Below, piece by piece: positions 1,052 to 64,000 of a stretch of 64,000 bases of DNA (its first letter is position 1; each line of letters begins with the position of its first letter). This DNA comes from an uncultured Clostridia bacterium (GTDB lineage Bacteria; Aerophobota; Aerophobia; Aerophobales; B3-G15). The notes beneath the pieces are model-generated. The model saw only the letters and a program-made list of their open reading frames with translations, had not been told where the DNA came from and did not search any database. A program made the translations under genes and the position numbers. Location: the NCBI GenBank assembly GCA_964482715.1, contig CAYZYX010000002.1, positions 10,816-74,815 of the forward strand, in the 5' to 3' direction.

Positions 1052-1426
1052 TTAAACCTTTCCCTTTTCCTCTTCATACCTATCTATCACACTTTTTTCC
1101 CAGAGTTTAATCCTGCTCTTGTGAGCGGCATGGGCAATCGCATGAGCAGCTGTGGGAGAACTGAGAATAATAAATAAGATTACCAGCAAACTCTTTACCA
1201 AAAATCCCGCAGCCAGGAAAGTTCCTAAAAGTATAAAGCAAGTTCCCAGAGTTACACATTTTGTAGCTGCCTGAAGTCTATTGTAGACATCAGGTAATCT
1301 CACAAGCCCGATACATCCCAGAAGATCAAATATAACCCCTATAAATATCAGCACCTTCCCGGCAATTACAACTGCTTCATTCATCGAATCTTTTTCCCTC
1401 CAGATATTTGGCAAGGGTAAGGGCAC
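1052..1426 (-). CDS. mrpG: Mrp/Mnh antiporter subunit G-like membrane protein
   Basis: 124 aa with 3 transmembrane helices and the RLPDVYNRLQAATK motif typical of MnhG/PhaG. Overlaps the upstream mrpF. Confidence 0.7.
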   Translation of the reverse strand: MPLPLPNIWREKDSMNEAVVIAGKVLIFIGVIFDLLGCIGLVRLPDVYNRLQAATKCVTLGTCFILLGTFLAAGFLVKSLLVILFIILSSPTAAHAIAHAAHKSRIKLWEKSVIDRYEEEKGKV

Positions 1427-1646
1427 CTAAGAACCCAAGAAGAGCCCAGGCTATTGCAATATCCATAAAATAAGTTCTCGGTGTATAAATGACAAAAAGG
1501 GCACAAAATCCTACTATCAGGATTCCCAGAATATCCACAGCTACAATTCTATCTGCCGCAGTTGGCCCTCTTAACACTCTATAAAGACATAAAAAACAAC
1601 TTGCGATTAAAGGTGCAGCAAATATGGCCGGAATTCCCAGGATCAT
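1377..1646 (-). CDS. mrpF: Mrp/Mnh antiporter subunit F-like membrane protein
   Basis: 89 aa, hydrophobic, with the RGPTAADRIVAVDILG motif characteristic of MrpF. Confidence 0.65.
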   Translation of the reverse strand: MILGIPAIFAAPLIASCFLCLYRVLRGPTAADRIVAVDILGILIVGFCALFVIYTPRTYFMDIAIAWALLGFLGALTLAKYLEGKRFDE

Positions 1647-2132: not shown

Positions 2133-3614
2133 TTATCCTCCCAGAATCAAGGCACTGTATTTGGTCCCCTCTTGAAGAACAGTAACTGCAGGTTCAAAAA
2201 CAGCCTTCATGAGAGGATAAAAAAGAATTCCGGTTCCGATACAAATGATAGCCAATACAATCATGGATATGCACATGGGTGTTGGTACTTCTTTTATCTG
2301 CGCCCACTTTTCTTTAAGAGTGCCAAAAAAGGCATATCTTTGAACCCTGAGATAATAGGCAAGAGTTAAAACTGATACCAGAATAGTCAGCACAGTTAAA
2401 ACAAAGTGCCCGGCCTGAACCAATCCAATAATTATAAAAAGTTTACTCCAGAATCCATTAAAGGGAGGAATACCAGAGATAGACAGTGAGCCAATGGTGG
2501 ATGTGGTACCCGTAACGGGCATAACTTTACTCAGCCCCCCCATTTCCTTTAGTTTTCTTGTGCCTGTTGAGTATTCAACGGCTCCTGAGTTAAGAAATAA
2601 AAGTGCTTTAAAAGATGCATGGTTAAAAAGATGAAAAAGCGCCCCCAAAAGTCCCCAATAATTTCCACATCCCAGTCCAATCATTATGTATCCAATTTGA
2701 GAAATAGACGAGTAGGCAAGAAGCCTTTTAAAATCGGACTGACGAATAGCTAAAAGTCCGCCTCCAATCATGGAGATAACACCTAAAATCATTAAAGTCC
2801 AGGATAACTGAAGGGTCATTCCAAAGACATTAAAGAAAACACGAGTTATGGTATAAACGCCCAGGGCTTTAATCAAAACACCTGAAAGCATTGCTGAAAT
2901 AGGAGCCGGGGCGCTGGGATGTGCATCAGGTAGCCAGGCATGAAAAGGAATAATGGCCGCTTTAAGTCCAAACCCTGCCAGAAACAGGACAAGTGAAAAA
3001 GAGAGGAGTAAATTCTTTTTTCCCTGTATGATACTGCCAATATCAGCCATATTTAAGCTTCCCGTAAGTCCGTAGAGAAGTCCAACTGAGAAGAGAATGA
3101 GGATAGAAGCAACCGAGCCCATAACCATGTACTTGAAAGAGGCTTCCAGTTCTTCTGCTTCCACTCCAAAGGCAACCAAAGCATAAGAGGCAATAGAGGC
3201 AATCTCTAAAAATACGAATAGATTAAAAAAATCTCCAGTAAGAACTACACCATTCATACCGGCCAGCATCAACATGAAAAGGCTATAAAATCTGTGTTTG
3301 GCGGTAAATCTTTTCATGTAGCTTACCGAATACAGGGTGGCAAAGAAAGCTATGGTATTTACTACGATAAGCATTAAAATAGATAACCCATCAAGGACAA
3401 GATTTATTCCCTTTGGAGGTAACCACTTACCCATAATATAAACCAGAACCTGATTATCTTTAATCAAGGCCAGTAAAACAAGGGATAAAACTGTCAAACA
3501 GAATGTGGCTCCGTTAGCCACCAGGTCACAGGCAATCTCCTTTGCCTTACCCATTAAAGCAAGCACAAAAGCAACCCCCAAGGGAATGGCTATGAATAGA
3601 GGAATTATGTTCAT
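2133..3614 (-). CDS. mrpD: Antiporter-like subunit (MrpD/NuoN/HyfB family), proton/sodium-pumping membrane subunit
   Basis: 493 aa polytopic protein with FHAWLPDAHPSAPAPISAMLSG, the conserved complex-I antiporter motif. Confidence 0.8.
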   Translation of the reverse strand: MNIIPLFIAIPLGVAFVLALMGKAKEIACDLVANGATFCLTVLSLVLLALIKDNQVLVYIMGKWLPPKGINLVLDGLSILMLIVVNTIAFFATLYSVSYMKRFTAKHRFYSLFMLMLAGMNGVVLTGDFFNLFVFLEIASIASYALVAFGVEAEELEASFKYMVMGSVASILILFSVGLLYGLTGSLNMADIGSIIQGKKNLLLSFSLVLFLAGFGLKAAIIPFHAWLPDAHPSAPAPISAMLSGVLIKALGVYTITRVFFNVFGMTLQLSWTLMILGVISMIGGGLLAIRQSDFKRLLAYSSISQIGYIMIGLGCGNYWGLLGALFHLFNHASFKALLFLNSGAVEYSTGTRKLKEMGGLSKVMPVTGTTSTIGSLSISGIPPFNGFWSKLFIIIGLVQAGHFVLTVLTILVSVLTLAYYLRVQRYAFFGTLKEKWAQIKEVPTPMCISMIVLAIICIGTGILFYPLMKAVFEPAVTVLQEGTKYSALILGG

Positions 3615-4969: not shown

Positions 4970-6892
4970 TTACACCAGAAAAACCAGAAGTAAGATAACA
5001 AGACCTAAAAGAGACCAGGCAAGATAGGTATGAAGAACACCACTGTGTGCAAGAGAAGCTCCTTTACCAGCAAGTAAGACCACCCAGGATAAACCTCTCC
5101 ACACATACTCCACTAATCTATCAAGACCCAGGAGAAAGTAAGCAACCCAACGAGCAAATTTAAGCACCCCTTGATAAATGTCAAGACTTCCTTTTTCAAT
5201 AGCTTGGTAAAAACCCCTTAAACCGTAAAAATTCTTAATCGTATCGTAAAAATCAGCTCCTGATACCTTCATCTCCAGAGTAAACTTTTCTCCACCTATG
5301 TAACTTTCTGATTCTCTTAAACGTTTAGTCCTTCCAGCAAGGTAGATTATTATCCCCACAATTATTCCGATAATTATAAGTAAAGTAGCAACTCCCGGCT
5401 GCCACCACCCTATCCAGGCCTGAGGAGAAGAAACTTCAGGCACAGCTGAAGCAATGAAAAGTTTTATAGGGAATTGGTAAGCAAAAATCCCAAAAGCCAC
5501 ACATAAACCTGCCAGGATTAGAACAGGAATAGTCATACCCATTCCAGGCTCTTTTATTTTCATTTCCAGTGATTTTTGCTGAACTTCTTCGCTTTCCACT
5601 CCAAGAAAAATTCCATGAATTAACTTCATAAAACTTGCCAAAGTTAAGGCAGACCCAAACATAGCCGCCACCAGCCATATAATCCAGCTTCCTCCACCGG
5701 TTATCTTTCCTACTTCCACAACACCCTGGTAAATCATCCATTTAGAGAAAAAGCCGTTAAAAGGTGGAACACCAGAAATTGAAAGGGAAGCTATCAAAAC
5801 TCCTATAAAGGTAAGAGGCATAAACTTTGCCAGTCCCCCTAACCGGTCAATATCAGTAGTTTTTAAGTTATGTTCCACAGATCCTCCTCCAAGGAACAGG
5901 CAGGATTTATATATGGCATTATTCACCATATGGAATATACCCCCAGCAATTCCTACAGGAATTGCTGTCCCTATTCCCAGGACCATATAACCAACCTGGG
6001 ATATTGCATGGTAGGAAAGTAGTTTTTTTAGATCATGCTGAACTAAAGCCATAAATACTGCTGCTACGATAGTAACAGAGCCAATAAACATAAGAAGGAG
6101 AGAAAGAGGACCATTTGGTATTAATTTAAAGAAATCAAGGCATATTCTGGCCAAAAGATAAATTCCTAATAATTTATCCAGCGAAGCCGGCAAGAAGGCC
6201 ATGATTGGGGTTGGAACCTTCTCAGCAGCATCGGGTATCCATCCATGAAACGGCATCGCTCCCGCTTTTGCAATGGCTCCCATCATAAGCAGGACAAAAG
6301 CTGCTACAGCCAGTCCTGAGTTTATGGGAAGAGGTTGAAATCCACTCATATTAAGCGTCCCACTTAATTTGTAAAGGAAGAAAATACCAAGAATCAACGC
6401 AAAATCAGCAGAGCCAATTATAAAGAGGCCCTTGGTAGCAACTTTTGATGAACCCAGAGACAACATGCAATACAGAAGGATACCCAGCATACCCCAGAAA
6501 AGCAAAAATATAAGGAAGTTCGCTGCCAGAACCGCCCCAATGGCACAGGATGTGGTTAAGAGAAGGTAAAAATAATACTCCCTGGTCCGTCTTAAGCTGG
6601 ACATAAATTTTACAGAGAAAAGAGAGATAAGTAAGGAAAAAAGAGAGATAAAGAGAAGGATAAAAGAGGAAAATCGGTAACTCTGGAGACTAAAGTTTAT
6701 TCCCGGAAAGCTCAGCCAGGAATGATTAAAAGAAAGTTCACCGCAGCCAAAGATGAGGATGGACAAGATAAGAACCACCAGGCTTACCCCTACACTGATG
6801 ACTTCTTTAATCCTTTTTGTCGGAATTAAAAGACAGATGATCCCACCTATTAAAGGCAGTATAATTGGATAGAGAATTAAAGAAGAATTCAT
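4970..6892 (-). CDS. mrpA: MrpA/NuoL-like antiporter subunit (long family member)
   Basis: 640 aa, more than 16 predicted transmembrane helices, with the motif FHGWIPDAAEKVPTPIMAFLPASLDK matching the NuoL/MrpA core. Confidence 0.8.
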   Translation of the reverse strand: MNSSLILYPIILPLIGGIICLLIPTKRIKEVISVGVSLVVLILSILIFGCGELSFNHSWLSFPGINFSLQSYRFSSFILLFISLFSLLISLFSVKFMSSLRRTREYYFYLLLTTSCAIGAVLAANFLIFLLFWGMLGILLYCMLSLGSSKVATKGLFIIGSADFALILGIFFLYKLSGTLNMSGFQPLPINSGLAVAAFVLLMMGAIAKAGAMPFHGWIPDAAEKVPTPIMAFLPASLDKLLGIYLLARICLDFFKLIPNGPLSLLLMFIGSVTIVAAVFMALVQHDLKKLLSYHAISQVGYMVLGIGTAIPVGIAGGIFHMVNNAIYKSCLFLGGGSVEHNLKTTDIDRLGGLAKFMPLTFIGVLIASLSISGVPPFNGFFSKWMIYQGVVEVGKITGGGSWIIWLVAAMFGSALTLASFMKLIHGIFLGVESEEVQQKSLEMKIKEPGMGMTIPVLILAGLCVAFGIFAYQFPIKLFIASAVPEVSSPQAWIGWWQPGVATLLIIIGIIVGIIIYLAGRTKRLRESESYIGGEKFTLEMKVSGADFYDTIKNFYGLRGFYQAIEKGSLDIYQGVLKFARWVAYFLLGLDRLVEYVWRGLSWVVLLAGKGASLAHSGVLHTYLAWSLLGLVILLLVFLV

Positions 6893-8320: not shown

Positions 8321-9537
8321 TTGTATCTGTCCTCCCTTTCAAAATAAGAACCCAGAAGTTTTCTTGTTTTTTCCTGAGAAAGTCTTATAAGATCACTTCC
8401 ATCCATTAGGACTTTACCAGACTTTTTATCGACAACTCTCATCATCCTTTCAGTGCAACAGTAACAAGGATCAATAGAGGCTAAAATCAATGCAGCATCG
8501 GCAACACTTTCACCGGGCACCGTAGCTTTACAGGTTGGAAGATTCACGTAAGTTGGAGCTCTTACCTTAAGCCTTACTGGAGTGTTAGAGCCATCAGAAC
8601 GGACATAGTGGAAAGTTTCTCCTCGTGGAGCTTCATGGTGACCTTTTCCTTCTCCAGGTGGCATCTCCTTAATTTTAACCGCAATATCCCCCTTGACTTT
8701 CTTTAATTTTTCAAGACATTGTCTTATTATCTTCACTGATTCAAGACATTCAAGAAGTCTCACCACAGTTTTAGCAAAAACATCTCCCTCTTTCTGAGTA
8801 ATTACATTCCATTCTACGAGGTCATAGGCTGCGTAAGGATCGTCTTTCCTTACGTCAATGGCCACTCCTGAACCTCGAGCAGTAGGACCCACGGCACAGT
8901 ATTTTATGGCATCCTCTTTAGTAAGGATTCCCACACCTTTAAGACGTGCAGCAAGAACAGGGTCATCAAGGGCGGCTTTGGTGATCATATCTACTTTTCT
9001 CTCTACTTCATCCAGAACTTTTAAGAAGTAAGGTATGTCCTCTTCTTTTATGTCTCTTCTAACACCTCCTGGTTTTAACATGGCATAATGATTTCTATTC
9101 CCAGTAACAAGTTCAAAAAGTTCTAAAACTGGCTCTCGGTATTTCCAAATCCACATCCACAGAGTGTTATAACCAATAAAGTGTCCAGCAAGACCCGCCC
9201 ATAAAAGATGAGAATGAATCCTTTCAAGTTCTCCAACGATACTCCTTATGTATTTTGCTCGCTCAGGTATCTCCACTCCGGCAAGATCTTCCTGAGCGTT
9301 ACAGTTGGCAATTGGATGTGATGTAGAACATATTCCACAGATCCTCTCTACCAGGAAAATAACTTGGTCCCAGGTCATTCGTTCACCAATCTTTTCAATA
9401 GCCCGGTGGTTATATCCAATATGGATGTCAATATCTAAAACCTTTTCCCCTTCGACTTCAAGTTCAAAATACTCCGGTTCTTCCTGTAAAGGATGATAGG
9501 GACCTATTGGAATTATAGTCTTTCGATTTCGACTCAT
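8314..9537 (-). CDS. Group-4 (energy-converting) [NiFe]-hydrogenase large subunit (NuoD/HycE/EchE/MbhL-like)
   Basis: N-terminal Ni-binding motif RICGICSTSH (RxCGxCxxxH) and C-terminal DPCYCCTER (DPCxxCxxR, the HycE type). A roughly 40-aa tail follows that would be removed by a HycI-type protease. 407 aa. Confidence 0.9.
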   Translation of the reverse strand: MSRNRKTIIPIGPYHPLQEEPEYFELEVEGEKVLDIDIHIGYNHRAIEKIGERMTWDQVIFLVERICGICSTSHPIANCNAQEDLAGVEIPERAKYIRSIVGELERIHSHLLWAGLAGHFIGYNTLWMWIWKYREPVLELFELVTGNRNHYAMLKPGGVRRDIKEEDIPYFLKVLDEVERKVDMITKAALDDPVLAARLKGVGILTKEDAIKYCAVGPTARGSGVAIDVRKDDPYAAYDLVEWNVITQKEGDVFAKTVVRLLECLESVKIIRQCLEKLKKVKGDIAVKIKEMPPGEGKGHHEAPRGETFHYVRSDGSNTPVRLKVRAPTYVNLPTCKATVPGESVADAALILASIDPCYCCTERMMRVVDKKSGKVLMDGSDLIRLSQEKTRKLLGSYFEREDRYKC

Positions 9538-11449: not shown

Positions 11450-11952
11450 CCCTGTTTTTTCTCCTCTTGAGGTAGTTCTCTCTTCCAGGGTGTTACCTTA
11501 ACAAAAACCTCCCCGATTTTAAAGATATTATTTTCTTTATCTTCTACAAATTCCCCATATTTTATTGCCCCATCACCAGTTTGCACACATAGAGGCTGCT
11601 CACCTTCTTTCAATCTTCCCTGACAGAGATCACAGGTAAAAGTTAGAAAAGGGATTATCTCCATGTGAATTGTTCCAAAAGGGCAGGCTACTGCACAGGA
11701 CTTACAAGAGACACACAGACAATTATTTCTCCTGATAATTCCAGTTTCTTCCACTCTTTCCAGAGCTTCGTATCTACAGGCATTTATACAGGGGTGCTCT
11801 TCACACTTTCTACACACTATTTGAAAAGCGAGCCATTCTCTTAGTTGTAAGATCCCGTTATTGTTAAAATGATAAGGATAGCTACACTTAATATTTAATT
11901 TTTTCCAGTTCTGATTTATAAAATCCAGATCGATAAAGAGAGACTTATTCAA
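11446..11952 (-). CDS. Poly-[4Fe-4S] ferredoxin-like electron-transfer protein (HycB/HydN-like)
   Basis: 168 aa with at least 14 cysteines arranged in CxxCxxxxCxxxC, CxCxxCxxCxxxCP and CxxC clusters. It lies between the AsrB/HydG-like gene and the NuoH-like gene. Confidence 0.6.
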   Translation of the reverse strand: MNKSLFIDLDFINQNWKKLNIKCSYPYHFNNNGILQLREWLAFQIVCRKCEEHPCINACRYEALERVEETGIIRRNNCLCVSCKSCAVACPFGTIHMEIIPFLTFTCDLCQGRLKEGEQPLCVQTGDGAIKYGEFVEDKENNIFKIGEVFVKVTPWKRELPQEEKKQG

Positions 11953-38100: not shown

Positions 38101-38264
38101 TTATCGCAAAAAAGATTTCTTCTTTCCAAACGCGGGAGGCACAACCATTTCTGGTTGTACCCTACCGGCTATCTTCCATAGGCAAAGCCCTTAGGAGAGA
38201 TAGCTCGAAGAAATCAATCCAGCCACGTCAACTAAAAGCAACTATTTCAAGTATACTAAAAAAT

Positions 38265-62808: not shown

Positions 62809-63240
62809 TTAATTAAATTTGGTTATCTGCACAGTTAAGTTTCTGCTTTTACCTCCATCAAGTTCAATATAAAGAATGGCCTGCCAGGTGCCCAAAAGAA
62901 GTCTTCCATTGCGAATAGGAATGGTTACCGACTGTCCGATAAAGGTATTTAGAATATGAGCATGAGCATTCTCCTCAGATTTTATCCCTTTATATTTTGC
63001 GTTATGTCTGTAGTCTCGCTCCAAAGGAACTAATCTTTTGTAAGTTTCCAATAGATCATCCCAAAGGTCATAGTCAGGCTCATTAACAGTTATAGCTGAT
63101 GTGACGTGTGGATTATAAATTAAAATACTACCCTCGTTTACCTTATTTTTATCCACAATGTATTGAACCTTATCGGTAATATCAACTATTTTAAGATACT
63201 CCTCCGTGCGTATCGGGATCTCATCCCACAAAACTTCCAT
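62809..63240 (-). CDS. YjbQ/UPF0047-family protein (secondary thiamine-phosphate synthase-like)
   Basis: 143 aa with conserved HVTSAITVNE ... HAHILNTFIGQS ... GTWQAI blocks. Confidence 0.65.
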   Translation of the reverse strand: MEVLWDEIPIRTEEYLKIVDITDKVQYIVDKNKVNEGSILIYNPHVTSAITVNEPDYDLWDDLLETYKRLVPLERDYRHNAKYKGIKSEENAHAHILNTFIGQSVTIPIRNGRLLLGTWQAILYIELDGGKSRNLTVQITKFN

Positions 63241-63406
63241 TTTTTCCTCCTCCTCATTTGGATTTTAGAAAATACTAACTCTATATCAATCAATACAACT
63301 TGTTTCTTATTCCTTCTTTAATCTCCCGGTAAATTTGCACTATCCCGCTTCGACAAAATTTCTCTTATCATAATAACTTACAATATTTGTTCGTCAACTT
63401 GAAAAC

Positions 63407-63435
63407 TTGCACATTCTTTAAATTGGTGGTATAAT
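63407..63435 (+). promoter_or_regulatory. Strong sigma-70 promoter with extended -10
   Basis: TTGCAC (63407..63412), a 17-nt spacer and TGGTATAAT (-10 TATAAT at 63430..63435). It points at the tRNA-like segment. Confidence 0.6.
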
Positions 63436-63453
63436 AACGCAGAAGGAGATCTT

Positions 63454-63497
63454 GCCGGAGTGGCGGAACTGATAGACGCGCTGGACTTAAAATCCAA
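63454..63497 (+). pseudogene. 5' fragment of a tRNA-Leu(UAA) gene: acceptor 5' strand, D-arm and anticodon arm only; no variable arm, T-arm or 3' acceptor
   Basis: GCCGGAGTGGCGGAACTGATAGACGCGCTGGACTTAAAATCC matches the canonical bacterial tRNA-Leu 5' half (GCCGxxGTGGCGGAA-TGGTAGACGC ... GGACTTAAAATCC, anticodon TAA). The D-loop lacks the conserved GG and the anticodon stem has a mispair. No GGTTCGA-type T-arm lies in the 500 nt downstream. Confidence 0.4.
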
Positions 63498-63746
63498 ATT
63501 AGCCCTTCTTAAGAAACTACTCCAGGAGCTCAAAAGCAAGATTCAGTAAGCCTTTTCAAGACTTTCATTCCTCACCAATTTGTATCAATTTGCCTCCTTT
63601 TGTACCTCCCATGGACACTATTTGGACACCTGAATTTGTGGATGACAGGGATCCGGATTATGCACCAATGTAGTGGCAGGCTTATTCCAAAGTGTGACAG
63701 GTTTGAAGGATCATTCACCAGGGAAAGGGAACAAGAGCAATTTGAT

Positions 63747-64000
63747 CTACTTCTTCAGCGCAAACAACAGGGAAGGGTGAACATTGGCATCCGGGTTGAA
63801 AATATCTCTCCCAAATAAAAGCTTCATGTCTATTTCCTTCTTTTTAATATTTTCAAGGAATTTTCTGTCATCCCTGTCCAACACCAGAACCTTTTTGTAA
63901 AATTCAATGACATCTTGTTTCACCCGGGAAGCGTCTATGTCCTGGGGAGATGAGACAAAAGGACTTATCTGCTGGATGAAATGTCTCCTGCTGTATCTTG
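63747..64000 (-). CDS. 3' end of an unidentified ORF entering from beyond the window
   Basis: Manual translation gives an open frame (...KKVLVLDRDDRKFLENIKKKEIDMKLLFGRDIFNPDANVHPSLLFALKK*) ending at 63747. It is not in the ORF track because no start codon lies inside the window. Confidence 0.3.
   Translation of the reverse strand, partial: RYSRRHFIQQISPFVSSPQDIDASRVKQDVIEFYKKVLVLDRDDRKFLENIKKKEIDMKLLFGRDIFNPDANVHPSLLFALKK

Follow-up and report, generated by a model that had tools for sequence, protein, structure and literature searches.

A tRNA-Leu(UAA) 5' half abutting a conserved ~140-bp unit: a candidate integration junction at the border of a putative defense island in an uncultured bacterium

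Near the right end of a 64,000-nucleotide stretch of DNA from an uncultured Clostridia bacterium (GTDB lineage Aerophobota; contig CAYZYX010000002.1; this whole stretch is referred to below as the window), a promoter precedes what appears to be the 5' half of a tRNA-Leu(UAA) gene, which breaks off after the anticodon loop. The locus raises the question whether a tRNA gene was disrupted here and, if so, by what. An earlier, sequence-only reading had suggested that the fragment could mark the edge of an integrated element lying beyond the window end. The present analysis indicated that the half is a real, disrupted tRNA locus, or integration scar, of an uncommon form: a displaced 5' half with its promoter abuts a conserved ~140-bp arm common to islands that, across several uncultured lineages, occupy at least five different tRNA genes. 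With moderate confidence, the locus is interpreted as the left attachment-site (attL)-type junction of an island that was integrated in a rare, reverse polarity by a tyrosine recombinase acting in the anticodon arm.

The sigma-70-type promoter of the former tRNA-Leu gene (63407..63435, plus strand) was read directly in the sequence and was also recovered by a promoter scan. A 17-nt spacer separates its −35 element, TTGCAC (63407-63412), from the −10 hexamer (63430-63435) of a TGgTATAAT motif. The scan score of 10 matches out of 12, plus the TG extension, marks a near-consensus promoter, in agreement with the earlier description, and alignment showed homology to the promoters of intact tRNA-Leu genes (L015, L030) and of other Leu halves. 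Following an 18-nt leader, the displaced 5' half (63454..63495, plus strand; GCCGGAGTGGCGGAACTGATAGACGCGCTGGACTTAAAATCC) comprises the acceptor 5' strand, the D arm, and the anticodon stem-loop (UAA), including 3-4 nt of the 3' strand of the anticodon stem. The anticodon loop, CTTAAAA, is unbroken.

That this gene is incomplete, as had been claimed, was confirmed by several searches. ARAGORN reported zero tRNA genes in the 64-kb window, and the Rfam tRNA model (RF00005) scored the half at 19 bits, against a gathering score of 29, by forcing a false, mismatched acceptor pairing, with the T arm missing. Among the parts expected of a tRNA gene (both acceptor strands and the D, anticodon, and T arms), the half lacks the 3' acceptor strand and the T arm. 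The half has no variable arm, and neither a T arm nor a CTCCGGCA 3' acceptor strand was found further downstream, either up to the window end or across the 3.1 kb that follow the half. This search included an extension of the locus by 2.5 kb beyond the window end, taken from a metagenome contig in ENA that belongs to the same organism (L001), and no T-loop or CTCCGGCA motif in a tRNA context was present in the window plus this contig. A 17-nt exact match to the tRNA leader and acceptor (AGATCTTGCCGGAGTGG) was observed elsewhere in the window (9273-9293, minus strand), inside an open reading frame (ORF) of 407 amino acids; it was rejected as a tRNA-related piece and attributed to chance.

The sequence-only reading had named a chance resemblance to a tRNA as an outcome that would speak against a disrupted gene. 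Such a resemblance was not what the comparison with relatives revealed. The alignment with intact tRNA-Leu genes of relatives holds column by column from the promoter through the leader to the end of the half. In L030, an intact tRNA-Leu(CAA) gene matches the half at 40 of its 42 nucleotides, the differences being D-loop residue G19 and the anticodon. On the basis of these alignments, the resemblance is homology rather than chance. The reported loss of the D-loop GG was also confirmed: the window carries CTGATAG (GG to GA, with loss of G19), whereas strain variants of the same locus (L012, L009) keep the canonical TTGGTAG. In another locus (L014), the D-loop, TCAGTAG, is likewise changed at G18G19. 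Judged from these variants, the loss of G18G19 in the window and in L014 is decay of the half, as in a relic. No exact match to the tRNA half was found in GTDB representative genomes.

The DNA that follows the break had been described as ~250 nt of non-coding sequence. Its non-coding nature was upheld, but the sequence is not anonymous: its first 140 nt form a conserved unit (63496..63634, plus strand), identified by alignment and by an nhmmer profile and read here as the island arm of an attL-type junction. The profile matched positions 63497-63634 (E=3e-31), as a single copy in the window. In an alignment of 11-12 units from different loci, the unit was found to consist of three non-coding parts. 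A purine-rich part (63496-63567 in the window) is followed by CACCAATTTGT and by one to four ~11-nt repeats resembling AATTTGTA, whose copy number varies by locus; in the window, phased AATTTGT-type repeats occupy 63573-63606. The third part is a nearly invariant end, TTTGTAYCTCACATGGACACTATTTGGACACC, in which GGACAC occurs twice in direct orientation, at an 11-nt interval. The terminal motif that holds these two repeats (TGTACCTCCCATGGACACTATTTGGACAC; 63601..63629, plus strand) may represent protein-binding sites of the arm type. In a second subfamily of units (L014, L016, L017, L020, L027), both repeats are changed together to AGTCAC...GGTCAC.

Analysis of the aligned units provided no indication of a conserved RNA or protein product. 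RNAalifold yielded a consensus of −0.17 kcal/mol with seven trivial pairs, and thus no conserved fold; neither covariation nor an Rfam match, as expected for a structured non-coding RNA, was seen for the unit, and no reading frame is kept across the units on either strand. Identification of the unit as a guide scaffold, an omega-RNA, or another structured RNA was rejected since a consensus fold is absent, and the small RNA that the sequence-only reading had envisaged as a product of the half remained without support. Matches to the unit were found neither in PLSDB plasmids, nor in INPHARED phages, nor in IMG/VR, and a tandem repeat finder applied to the 11-nt repeats returned nothing above its score threshold. 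The absence of an RNA fold, the variable copy number of the 11-nt repeats, and the concerted change of the GGACAC repeats together indicate that the unit acts at the DNA level. The phased A/T repeats and co-varying direct repeats resemble a protein-binding array, for which the arm-type sites of an attP, the attachment site of a mobile element, are a possible example.

Comparison of strains showed that variation within the locus is patchy. The window and L012 are identical over 63001-63468 (468 nt) and 63542-63719 (178 nt), with eight mismatches within 63469-63541, and L006 shows five differences from the window within 63585-63597. This pattern suggests gene conversion from other copies of a multi-copy repeat. 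Five contigs of the same species end inside the half or the unit; assemblers break contigs at repeats in such a way.

Similar junctions were retrieved from other organisms by two scans. A metagenome scan with the leader, acceptor, and D arm as query returned the window locus (L011, L012) and a pair of ordinary tRNA-Leu genes. It also returned L014, L016, and L017, three contigs that come from other organisms. Each of these three contigs has different upstream genes, and in each a promoter-driven tRNA-Leu(UAA) 5' half ends in ...GGACTTAAAATCCA and is followed by sequence that becomes clearly similar to 63568-63634 of the window. GTDB representative genomes were scanned with the most conserved 29 nt of the unit (TGTAYCTNNNANNGNCANNANTTGGNCAC), a pattern that occurs once in the window against 0.01 matches expected by chance. 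Nine loci were found, of which seven were true units and two were chance matches inside coding sequence.

Leu(UAA) halves precede the unit in the window, L012, L014, L016, L017, and L020, the last being a metagenome-assembled genome (MAG) binned as Aenigmatarchaeota that nevertheless contains bacterial-type genes and a bacterial-type promoter. Elsewhere, the sequence to the left of the unit is a Lys(UUU) 5' half in an uncultured bacterium (L018), a Met(CAU) 5' half directly after dnaG-rpoD in a Clostridia-labeled MAG (L022) and, in three Aerophobetes, a Leu(UAG) 5' half (L024), an Arg(CCG) 5' half (L025), and a degenerate Phe(GAA)-like anticodon arm (L026) that is found in L015 too. In another Clostridia-labeled MAG (L021), the unit is represented by its terminal part alone, and a recognizable tRNA fragment is absent. 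In total, 11 units adjoin halves of five clear tRNA identities and the degenerate Phe-like arms. Wherever a tRNA fragment could be recognized, the break point is constant: 3-4 nt of the anticodon stem's 3' strand are retained, and the bases directly after them read AAAAA(A)GG(G)CAAATYC... As at the junction of an attachment site, the displaced tRNA fragment thus ends at a stem-loop crossover site. Two independent loci also hold short units with similar deletion end points (L016, about 3480-3565 in tRNA-half orientation; L037, 17350-17450, minus strand), in which the last ~75 nt of the unit directly follow a promoter-bearing tRNA fragment (Met or Leu) that is 16-20 nt long, counted from the tRNA 5' end.

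A second short repeat of ~45 nt, with the core CAAATCTCAGCACTYGYCAAT, was observed 60-130 nt from units in three loci (L016:2388-2408, minus strand; L021:662-682, minus strand; L027:457-477, plus strand), and L014 and L017 hold several further copies that are dispersed and diverged. The window contains no copy. This repeat could be an element resembling a repetitive extragenic palindrome (REP) or a miniature inverted-repeat transposable element (MITE), or a further part of the island ends.

The two flanks of the junction differ in gene content. Core metabolic genes (yjbQ, cbiMNQO, NiFe hydrogenase, MTHFR) lie to the left of the window half, and left flanks elsewhere are likewise housekeeping: dnaG-rpoD (L036), glyA (L025), gspEF, and a gene for an M48 peptidase. 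To the right of the half, on the minus strand, the extended locus (L001) contains abiEii, abiEi and, after a ~400-nt gap, a gene for a PD-(D/E)XK nuclease, at or before which every contig retrieved for this locus ends. As the first cargo gene, abiEii reaches into the window with its 3' end (63747..64000, minus strand) and is convergent with the tRNA promoter. Its product matched PF08843 (E=7e-29) and the PADLOC AbiEii model (E=1e-73), AbiEi matched the corresponding PADLOC model (E=4e-59) and Pfam AbiEi_1, and the nuclease matched PDDEXK_1 (E=2e-29). The abiEii and abiEi genes overlap in L001, and with these matches the pair was assigned as an AbiE type IV toxin-antitoxin, or abortive infection, system. 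Right flanks elsewhere are accessory and locus-specific, encoding SIR2_2 (L020, L022), a Zot-like ATPase with a helix-turn-helix (HTH) domain (L025), or GIY-YIG (L036); the L022 contig ends 4.7 kb into its island. These results agreed with the earlier suggestion that the half marks the edge of an element beyond the window end, in that accessory DNA lies to its right and the junction belongs to a family at tRNA halves that border variable islands.

L037 is the L020 contig in extended form. L016 and L020/L037 have a common left flank (thioesterase, 96% identical) and carry different DNA after the unit: 2 kb with a tetratricopeptide-repeat (TPR) gene in L016 and at least 13 kb in L037. An all-against-all blastp comparison of unit-flanking ORFs identified no protein family consistently beside the units, and a conserved protein gene adjoining the units was rejected on this basis. 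Island and chromosome could not be told apart by base composition (GC).

Homologues of the PD-(D/E)XK protein were encountered in chromosomal or BREX contexts, and a unit accompanied them in L027 only. The L027 protein is 77% identical to that of the window island. In that contig (600-790), the unit is preceded by a reverse-complemented tRNA-Arg(CCU) 3' part and borders a defense island of at least 20 kb with HU, HTH_17, PD-(D/E)XK, HEPN_AbiV, and BREX genes. In a related organism from the same samples (L030; cf. L031, L032), a chromosomal homologue with 82% identity was observed ~800 nt upstream of an intact tRNA-Leu(CAA) gene (11516-11602), the one whose 5' half equals the window half except for two bases. 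The unit was found neither in this region of L030 nor in the context of the P0215 homologue.

Integration of mobile elements at tRNA genes offers a framework for these observations. Elements that target tRNA genes carry a tRNA fragment in their attP and leave the displaced fragment behind (PMC7192596; PMC4383910), they form tandem arrays (PMC6563490), and tyrosine integrases are described as favoring the dyad symmetry of stem-loops in the anticodon and T arms (PMC7192596). One of these sources documents that elements also integrate, though uncommonly, into the 5'-distal region of tRNA genes (PMC6563490, citing Zhao and Williams, 2002, and others), and it cites reverse-polarity cases in archaea as well (Krupovic and Bamford, 2008; Gaudin, 2014; Cossu, 2017).

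Evidence for such an event at the units came from two loci. Downstream of the half in L016, at a distance of 2.3 kb and on the same strand, lies an intact tRNA-Leu(UAA) gene, and a 45-nt block (−2 to +43) is 100% identical between the two. Judged from its position, this att-like block represents the direct repeat expected at both ends of an element with a crossover in the anticodon loop, except that here the 5' part is repeated. Neither the 3' half nor the integrase gene for which the sequence-only reading had proposed to look downstream was found within 3.1 kb of the window half. In L037, three units lie in direct orientation within 18 kb, and in front of each of the first two stands its own diverged copy of the tRNA-Leu promoter, the leader, and the 5' fragment. 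About 11 kb inside this array, a tyrosine recombinase fragment was detected (PF00589, E=2e-13) that retains the catalytic region only, its N-terminus having been cut off by an insertion of the IS3 family. The layout fits tandem accretion at a single site, with each element bringing its own promoter and 5' part.

A mechanism can be proposed on this basis. The island would recombine site-specifically with the anticodon stem-loop of the chromosomal tRNA-Leu(UAA) gene, leaving behind the chromosomal promoter and tRNA positions 1 to ~42, which would then read into the ~140-bp arm of the island. Because the 5' fragment is displaced together with its promoter, the island must supply a new 5' part, and a working tRNA would be restored with it at the far end. 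For the window island, this far end is predicted to be an intact, plus-strand tRNA-Leu(UAA) gene carrying the block GCCGGAGTGGCGGAAYTGRTAGACGCGCTGGACTTAAAATCCA. The unit would be a DNA-level element in which the phased A/T repeats and the 11-nt-spaced GGACAC repeats are binding sites for the recombinase and for accessory proteins, and the cargo to its right would consist of defense or accessory genes, here AbiEii/AbiEi and the PD-(D/E)XK nuclease. The orphan promoter probably still fires, which would generate a non-functional half-tRNA read-through transcript that is antisense to abiEii. We infer from the comparisons above that a tyrosine recombinase acts, that the window island ends at an intact tRNA-Leu(UAA) gene, and that the unit binds protein.

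Several observations weigh against reverse-polarity integration by a tyrosine recombinase. The 3.1 kb past the window half contain neither an integrase gene nor an intact tRNA gene, the 2-20 kb around the unit that could be inspected in ~10 other loci, 20 kb of it in L027, revealed no recombinase gene, and the sole recombinase seen, in L037, is truncated and 11 kb away. The 140-bp arm is ~70-85% identical across different tRNA targets and phyla, which is unusually conserved for attP arms. Furthermore, units in three loci lie 70-78 nt upstream of an intact tRNA gene whose identity is not that of the tRNA fragment to the left of the unit, an arrangement not predicted by the simple model of integration. 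In tRNA-half orientation, these are L015 (3390-3610), in which a Phe-like arm and a unit are followed by a promoter and tRNA-Leu(CAA), and L016 (3480-3640), with a 16-nt Met fragment, a short unit, and tRNA-Leu(UAA); in L024 (~6360-6680 in stored coordinates, minus strand), a Leu(UAG) half and a unit precede tRNA-Arg(CCG). This spacing may indicate an attP with the unit on both arms, in which case L025 and L024 would represent the attL and the right-hand counterpart (attR), respectively, of Arg-targeting elements in two Aerophobetes. However, the two units of L016 belong to different motif subfamilies. In L018, the housekeeping gene dapF comes straight after the unit, the junction in L027 is messy, with its inverted tRNA-Arg 3' part, and no empty site was found in any relative.

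In the main alternative, the unit is a non-autonomous repeat, or a landing pad, that is moved or used by a recombination system other than a resident tyrosine integrase. A recombinase acting in trans, or an enzyme that recognizes the anticodon-arm DNA hairpin, would be responsible, and islands would grow by insertion after GGACACC/AAAA. Such a system would account for the lack of an integrase beside ~10 units, for their multiple copies within genomes, in direct arrays, for the independent recurrence in L016 and L037 of short units on 16-20-nt tRNA 5' fragments, for the threefold occurrence of units at 70-78 nt from unrelated intact tRNAs, and for the unusually high conservation across phyla. 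We nevertheless consider it unlikely. A candidate enzyme was not found, no terminal inverted repeats are present, the tRNA 3' half does not follow the unit as a target duplication, and no tns or tnpA gene lies nearby, while the direct repeat in L016 and the position of the junction are exactly those expected of a tyrosine integrase core in the anticodon arm. Rather unlikely, too, is a broader proposal: that the unit marks a hitherto undescribed system of recombination, which acts on anticodon-arm hairpins at many tRNA genes, with no linked integrase, and builds tandem arrays of defense islands in uncultured sediment or vent bacteria (Aerophobetes and others), or else that the transcript of half-tRNA and unit is itself functional. 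The latter idea was also weighed in a more specific form, as an RNA gene made up of promoter, half, and unit. Its product might act as a decoy or regulator, directed for instance at anticodon nucleases or at the AbiEii nucleotidyltransferase, or as an antisense transcript of abiEii. In favor are a strong, conserved promoter and an anticodon stem-loop that is kept complete in every case; in addition, a terminator-like site between the promoter and the convergent abiEii gene was not found. AbiEii/DUF1814-family toxins (MenT) modify tRNA 3' ends and act on the 3' CCA end, which the half does not possess. Moreover, the unit shows no conserved secondary structure, covariation, or Rfam match, several units have no promoter or only a 16-20-nt or degenerate tRNA fragment, and the D-loop is decaying. 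Since cargo differs between loci, the link with AbiE appears incidental, and an RNA gene of this kind is very unlikely.

A protein product and a tRNA assembled from two genes were considered as well. The 29-codon, GTG-initiated ORF noticed earlier (MAELIDALDLKSKLALLKKLLQELKSKIQ; 63460..63549, plus strand) does exist; it overlaps the half and the start of the unit and has an AAGGAG sequence 11 nt upstream. It might encode a small amphipathic protein with a co-opted, tRNA-derived N-terminal coding region, consistent with an open frame of 28-29 codons in all seven Leu-type units and with differences between the window and L012 that amount to four synonymous and three conservative codon changes, none of them at codon position 2. 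In the second subfamily, however, synonymous to non-synonymous changes stand at ~3:5, which is a weak signal, the frame stops early in the Met-type unit, and the Arg- and Phe-type units have no common end. Past the tRNA-derived part, the peptides of the subfamilies are unrelated (LALLKKLLQELKSKIQ vs. NGKSRKRPKERKTES), and the GGAG-ATCTT leader occurs upstream of intact tRNA-Leu genes too. Because the region is T-poor, open frames are expected by chance. The ORF is thus probably fortuitous, and a functional peptide is highly improbable. A bacterial split tRNA gene of the Nanoarchaeum type, whose 5' half would be joined in trans to a separate 3' half, would explain the clean break, the presence of a promoter in front of the half, and the recurrence of the arrangement for several tRNAs. 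It is extremely improbable, given that L016 has an intact gene with an identical 5' half 2.3 kb away, that halves lose conserved D-loop residues, that the break falls after position 42 instead of 37/38, that one common sequence, and not a half-specific pairing sequence, follows the break whatever the tRNA identity, and that no 3' half was found in the 64 kb.

Other identities for the locus were rejected. As the sequence-only reading had expected, a group I intron did not apply: the anticodon loop is intact, no 3' exon was found, and Intron_gpI gave no match at gathering score in the window and none at E<=10 in 63300-64000. A Tn7-like or CRISPR-associated transposon (CAST) end was rejected because flanks of 2-20 kb contain no tns, tniQ, or cas genes and no locus holds an inverted copy of the motif. 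The lack of terminal inverted repeats, with no tRNA 3' half after the unit, likewise led to the rejection of an IS200/IS605 element or a MITE. A split integrase of the SSV type that reads through the att site was rejected as well, since the reading frames of either strand are interrupted by stops or end within ~18 codons.

Placed beside known systems, the junctions resemble the tyrosine-integrase islands mapped by Islander and TIGER (PMC4383910; PMC7192596). Like these, they show crossover at a symmetric stem-loop (the anticodon arm), a direct-repeat block in common with an intact tRNA at the other end (here in L016), accessory or defense cargo, and tandem arrays at one site. They differ in that the 5' half and native promoter are displaced, where usually the 3' part is, in that an integrase lies near neither end in the loci seen here, and in that a long conserved arm is common to elements at at least five, possibly six, tRNA identities. 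With reverse-polarity integration, as cited in PMC6563490, they share a displaced 5' fragment and an element that must provide a replacement 5' part and transcription signals. A group I intron in tRNA-Leu(UAA) interrupts the same tRNA species, but it lies within the anticodon loop, with the 3' exon downstream, whereas the break described here comes after the stem. Tn7-like and CAST ends are similar in their association with tRNA genes and in the fixed distance of 70-78 nt from intact tRNAs that was seen in three loci. The terminal motif of the unit, with TGTAC and repeated GTGAC/GGACAC-like sites, is also reminiscent of TnsB-binding repeats. In contrast to those ends, the tRNA is truncated instead of intact and housekeeping genes abut the tRNA side.

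To our knowledge, the unit family is undescribed; it was not found in the literature or sequence libraries searched, a search outside of which the primary reverse-polarity papers lie. Island finders seek displaced 3' fragments beside an integrase and would therefore miss the present class, and ARAGORN reports nothing at this locus. The short signature TGTAYCT...GGACAC-N5-GGACAC retrieves defense-island boundaries at several tRNA genes in poorly studied phyla, and thus provides a handle for mining defense cargo in MAGs, in which islands usually fall at contig ends. If reverse polarity is confirmed, the family shows how an element can replace the promoter and 5' half of a tRNA gene, with the orphaned promoter remaining live and directed into the cargo of the element. 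The missing nearby integrase and the unusual conservation of the arm leave room for a new mechanism.

Two riboswitch matches were observed in the course of the analysis. In L026, a consensus promoter (TTGACA, 17 nt, TATGAT) lies downstream of the unit and before a GC-rich untranslated stretch (~1470-1600 in stored coordinates, minus strand; 5000-5130 in unit orientation), and a c-di-GMP-I riboswitch was called at 1400-1475 (minus strand; 38.9 bits). In the window, the sole Rfam family above its gathering score was the Moco (molybdenum/tungsten cofactor) riboswitch, with an aptamer at 38103-38222 (minus strand; 82.8 bits).

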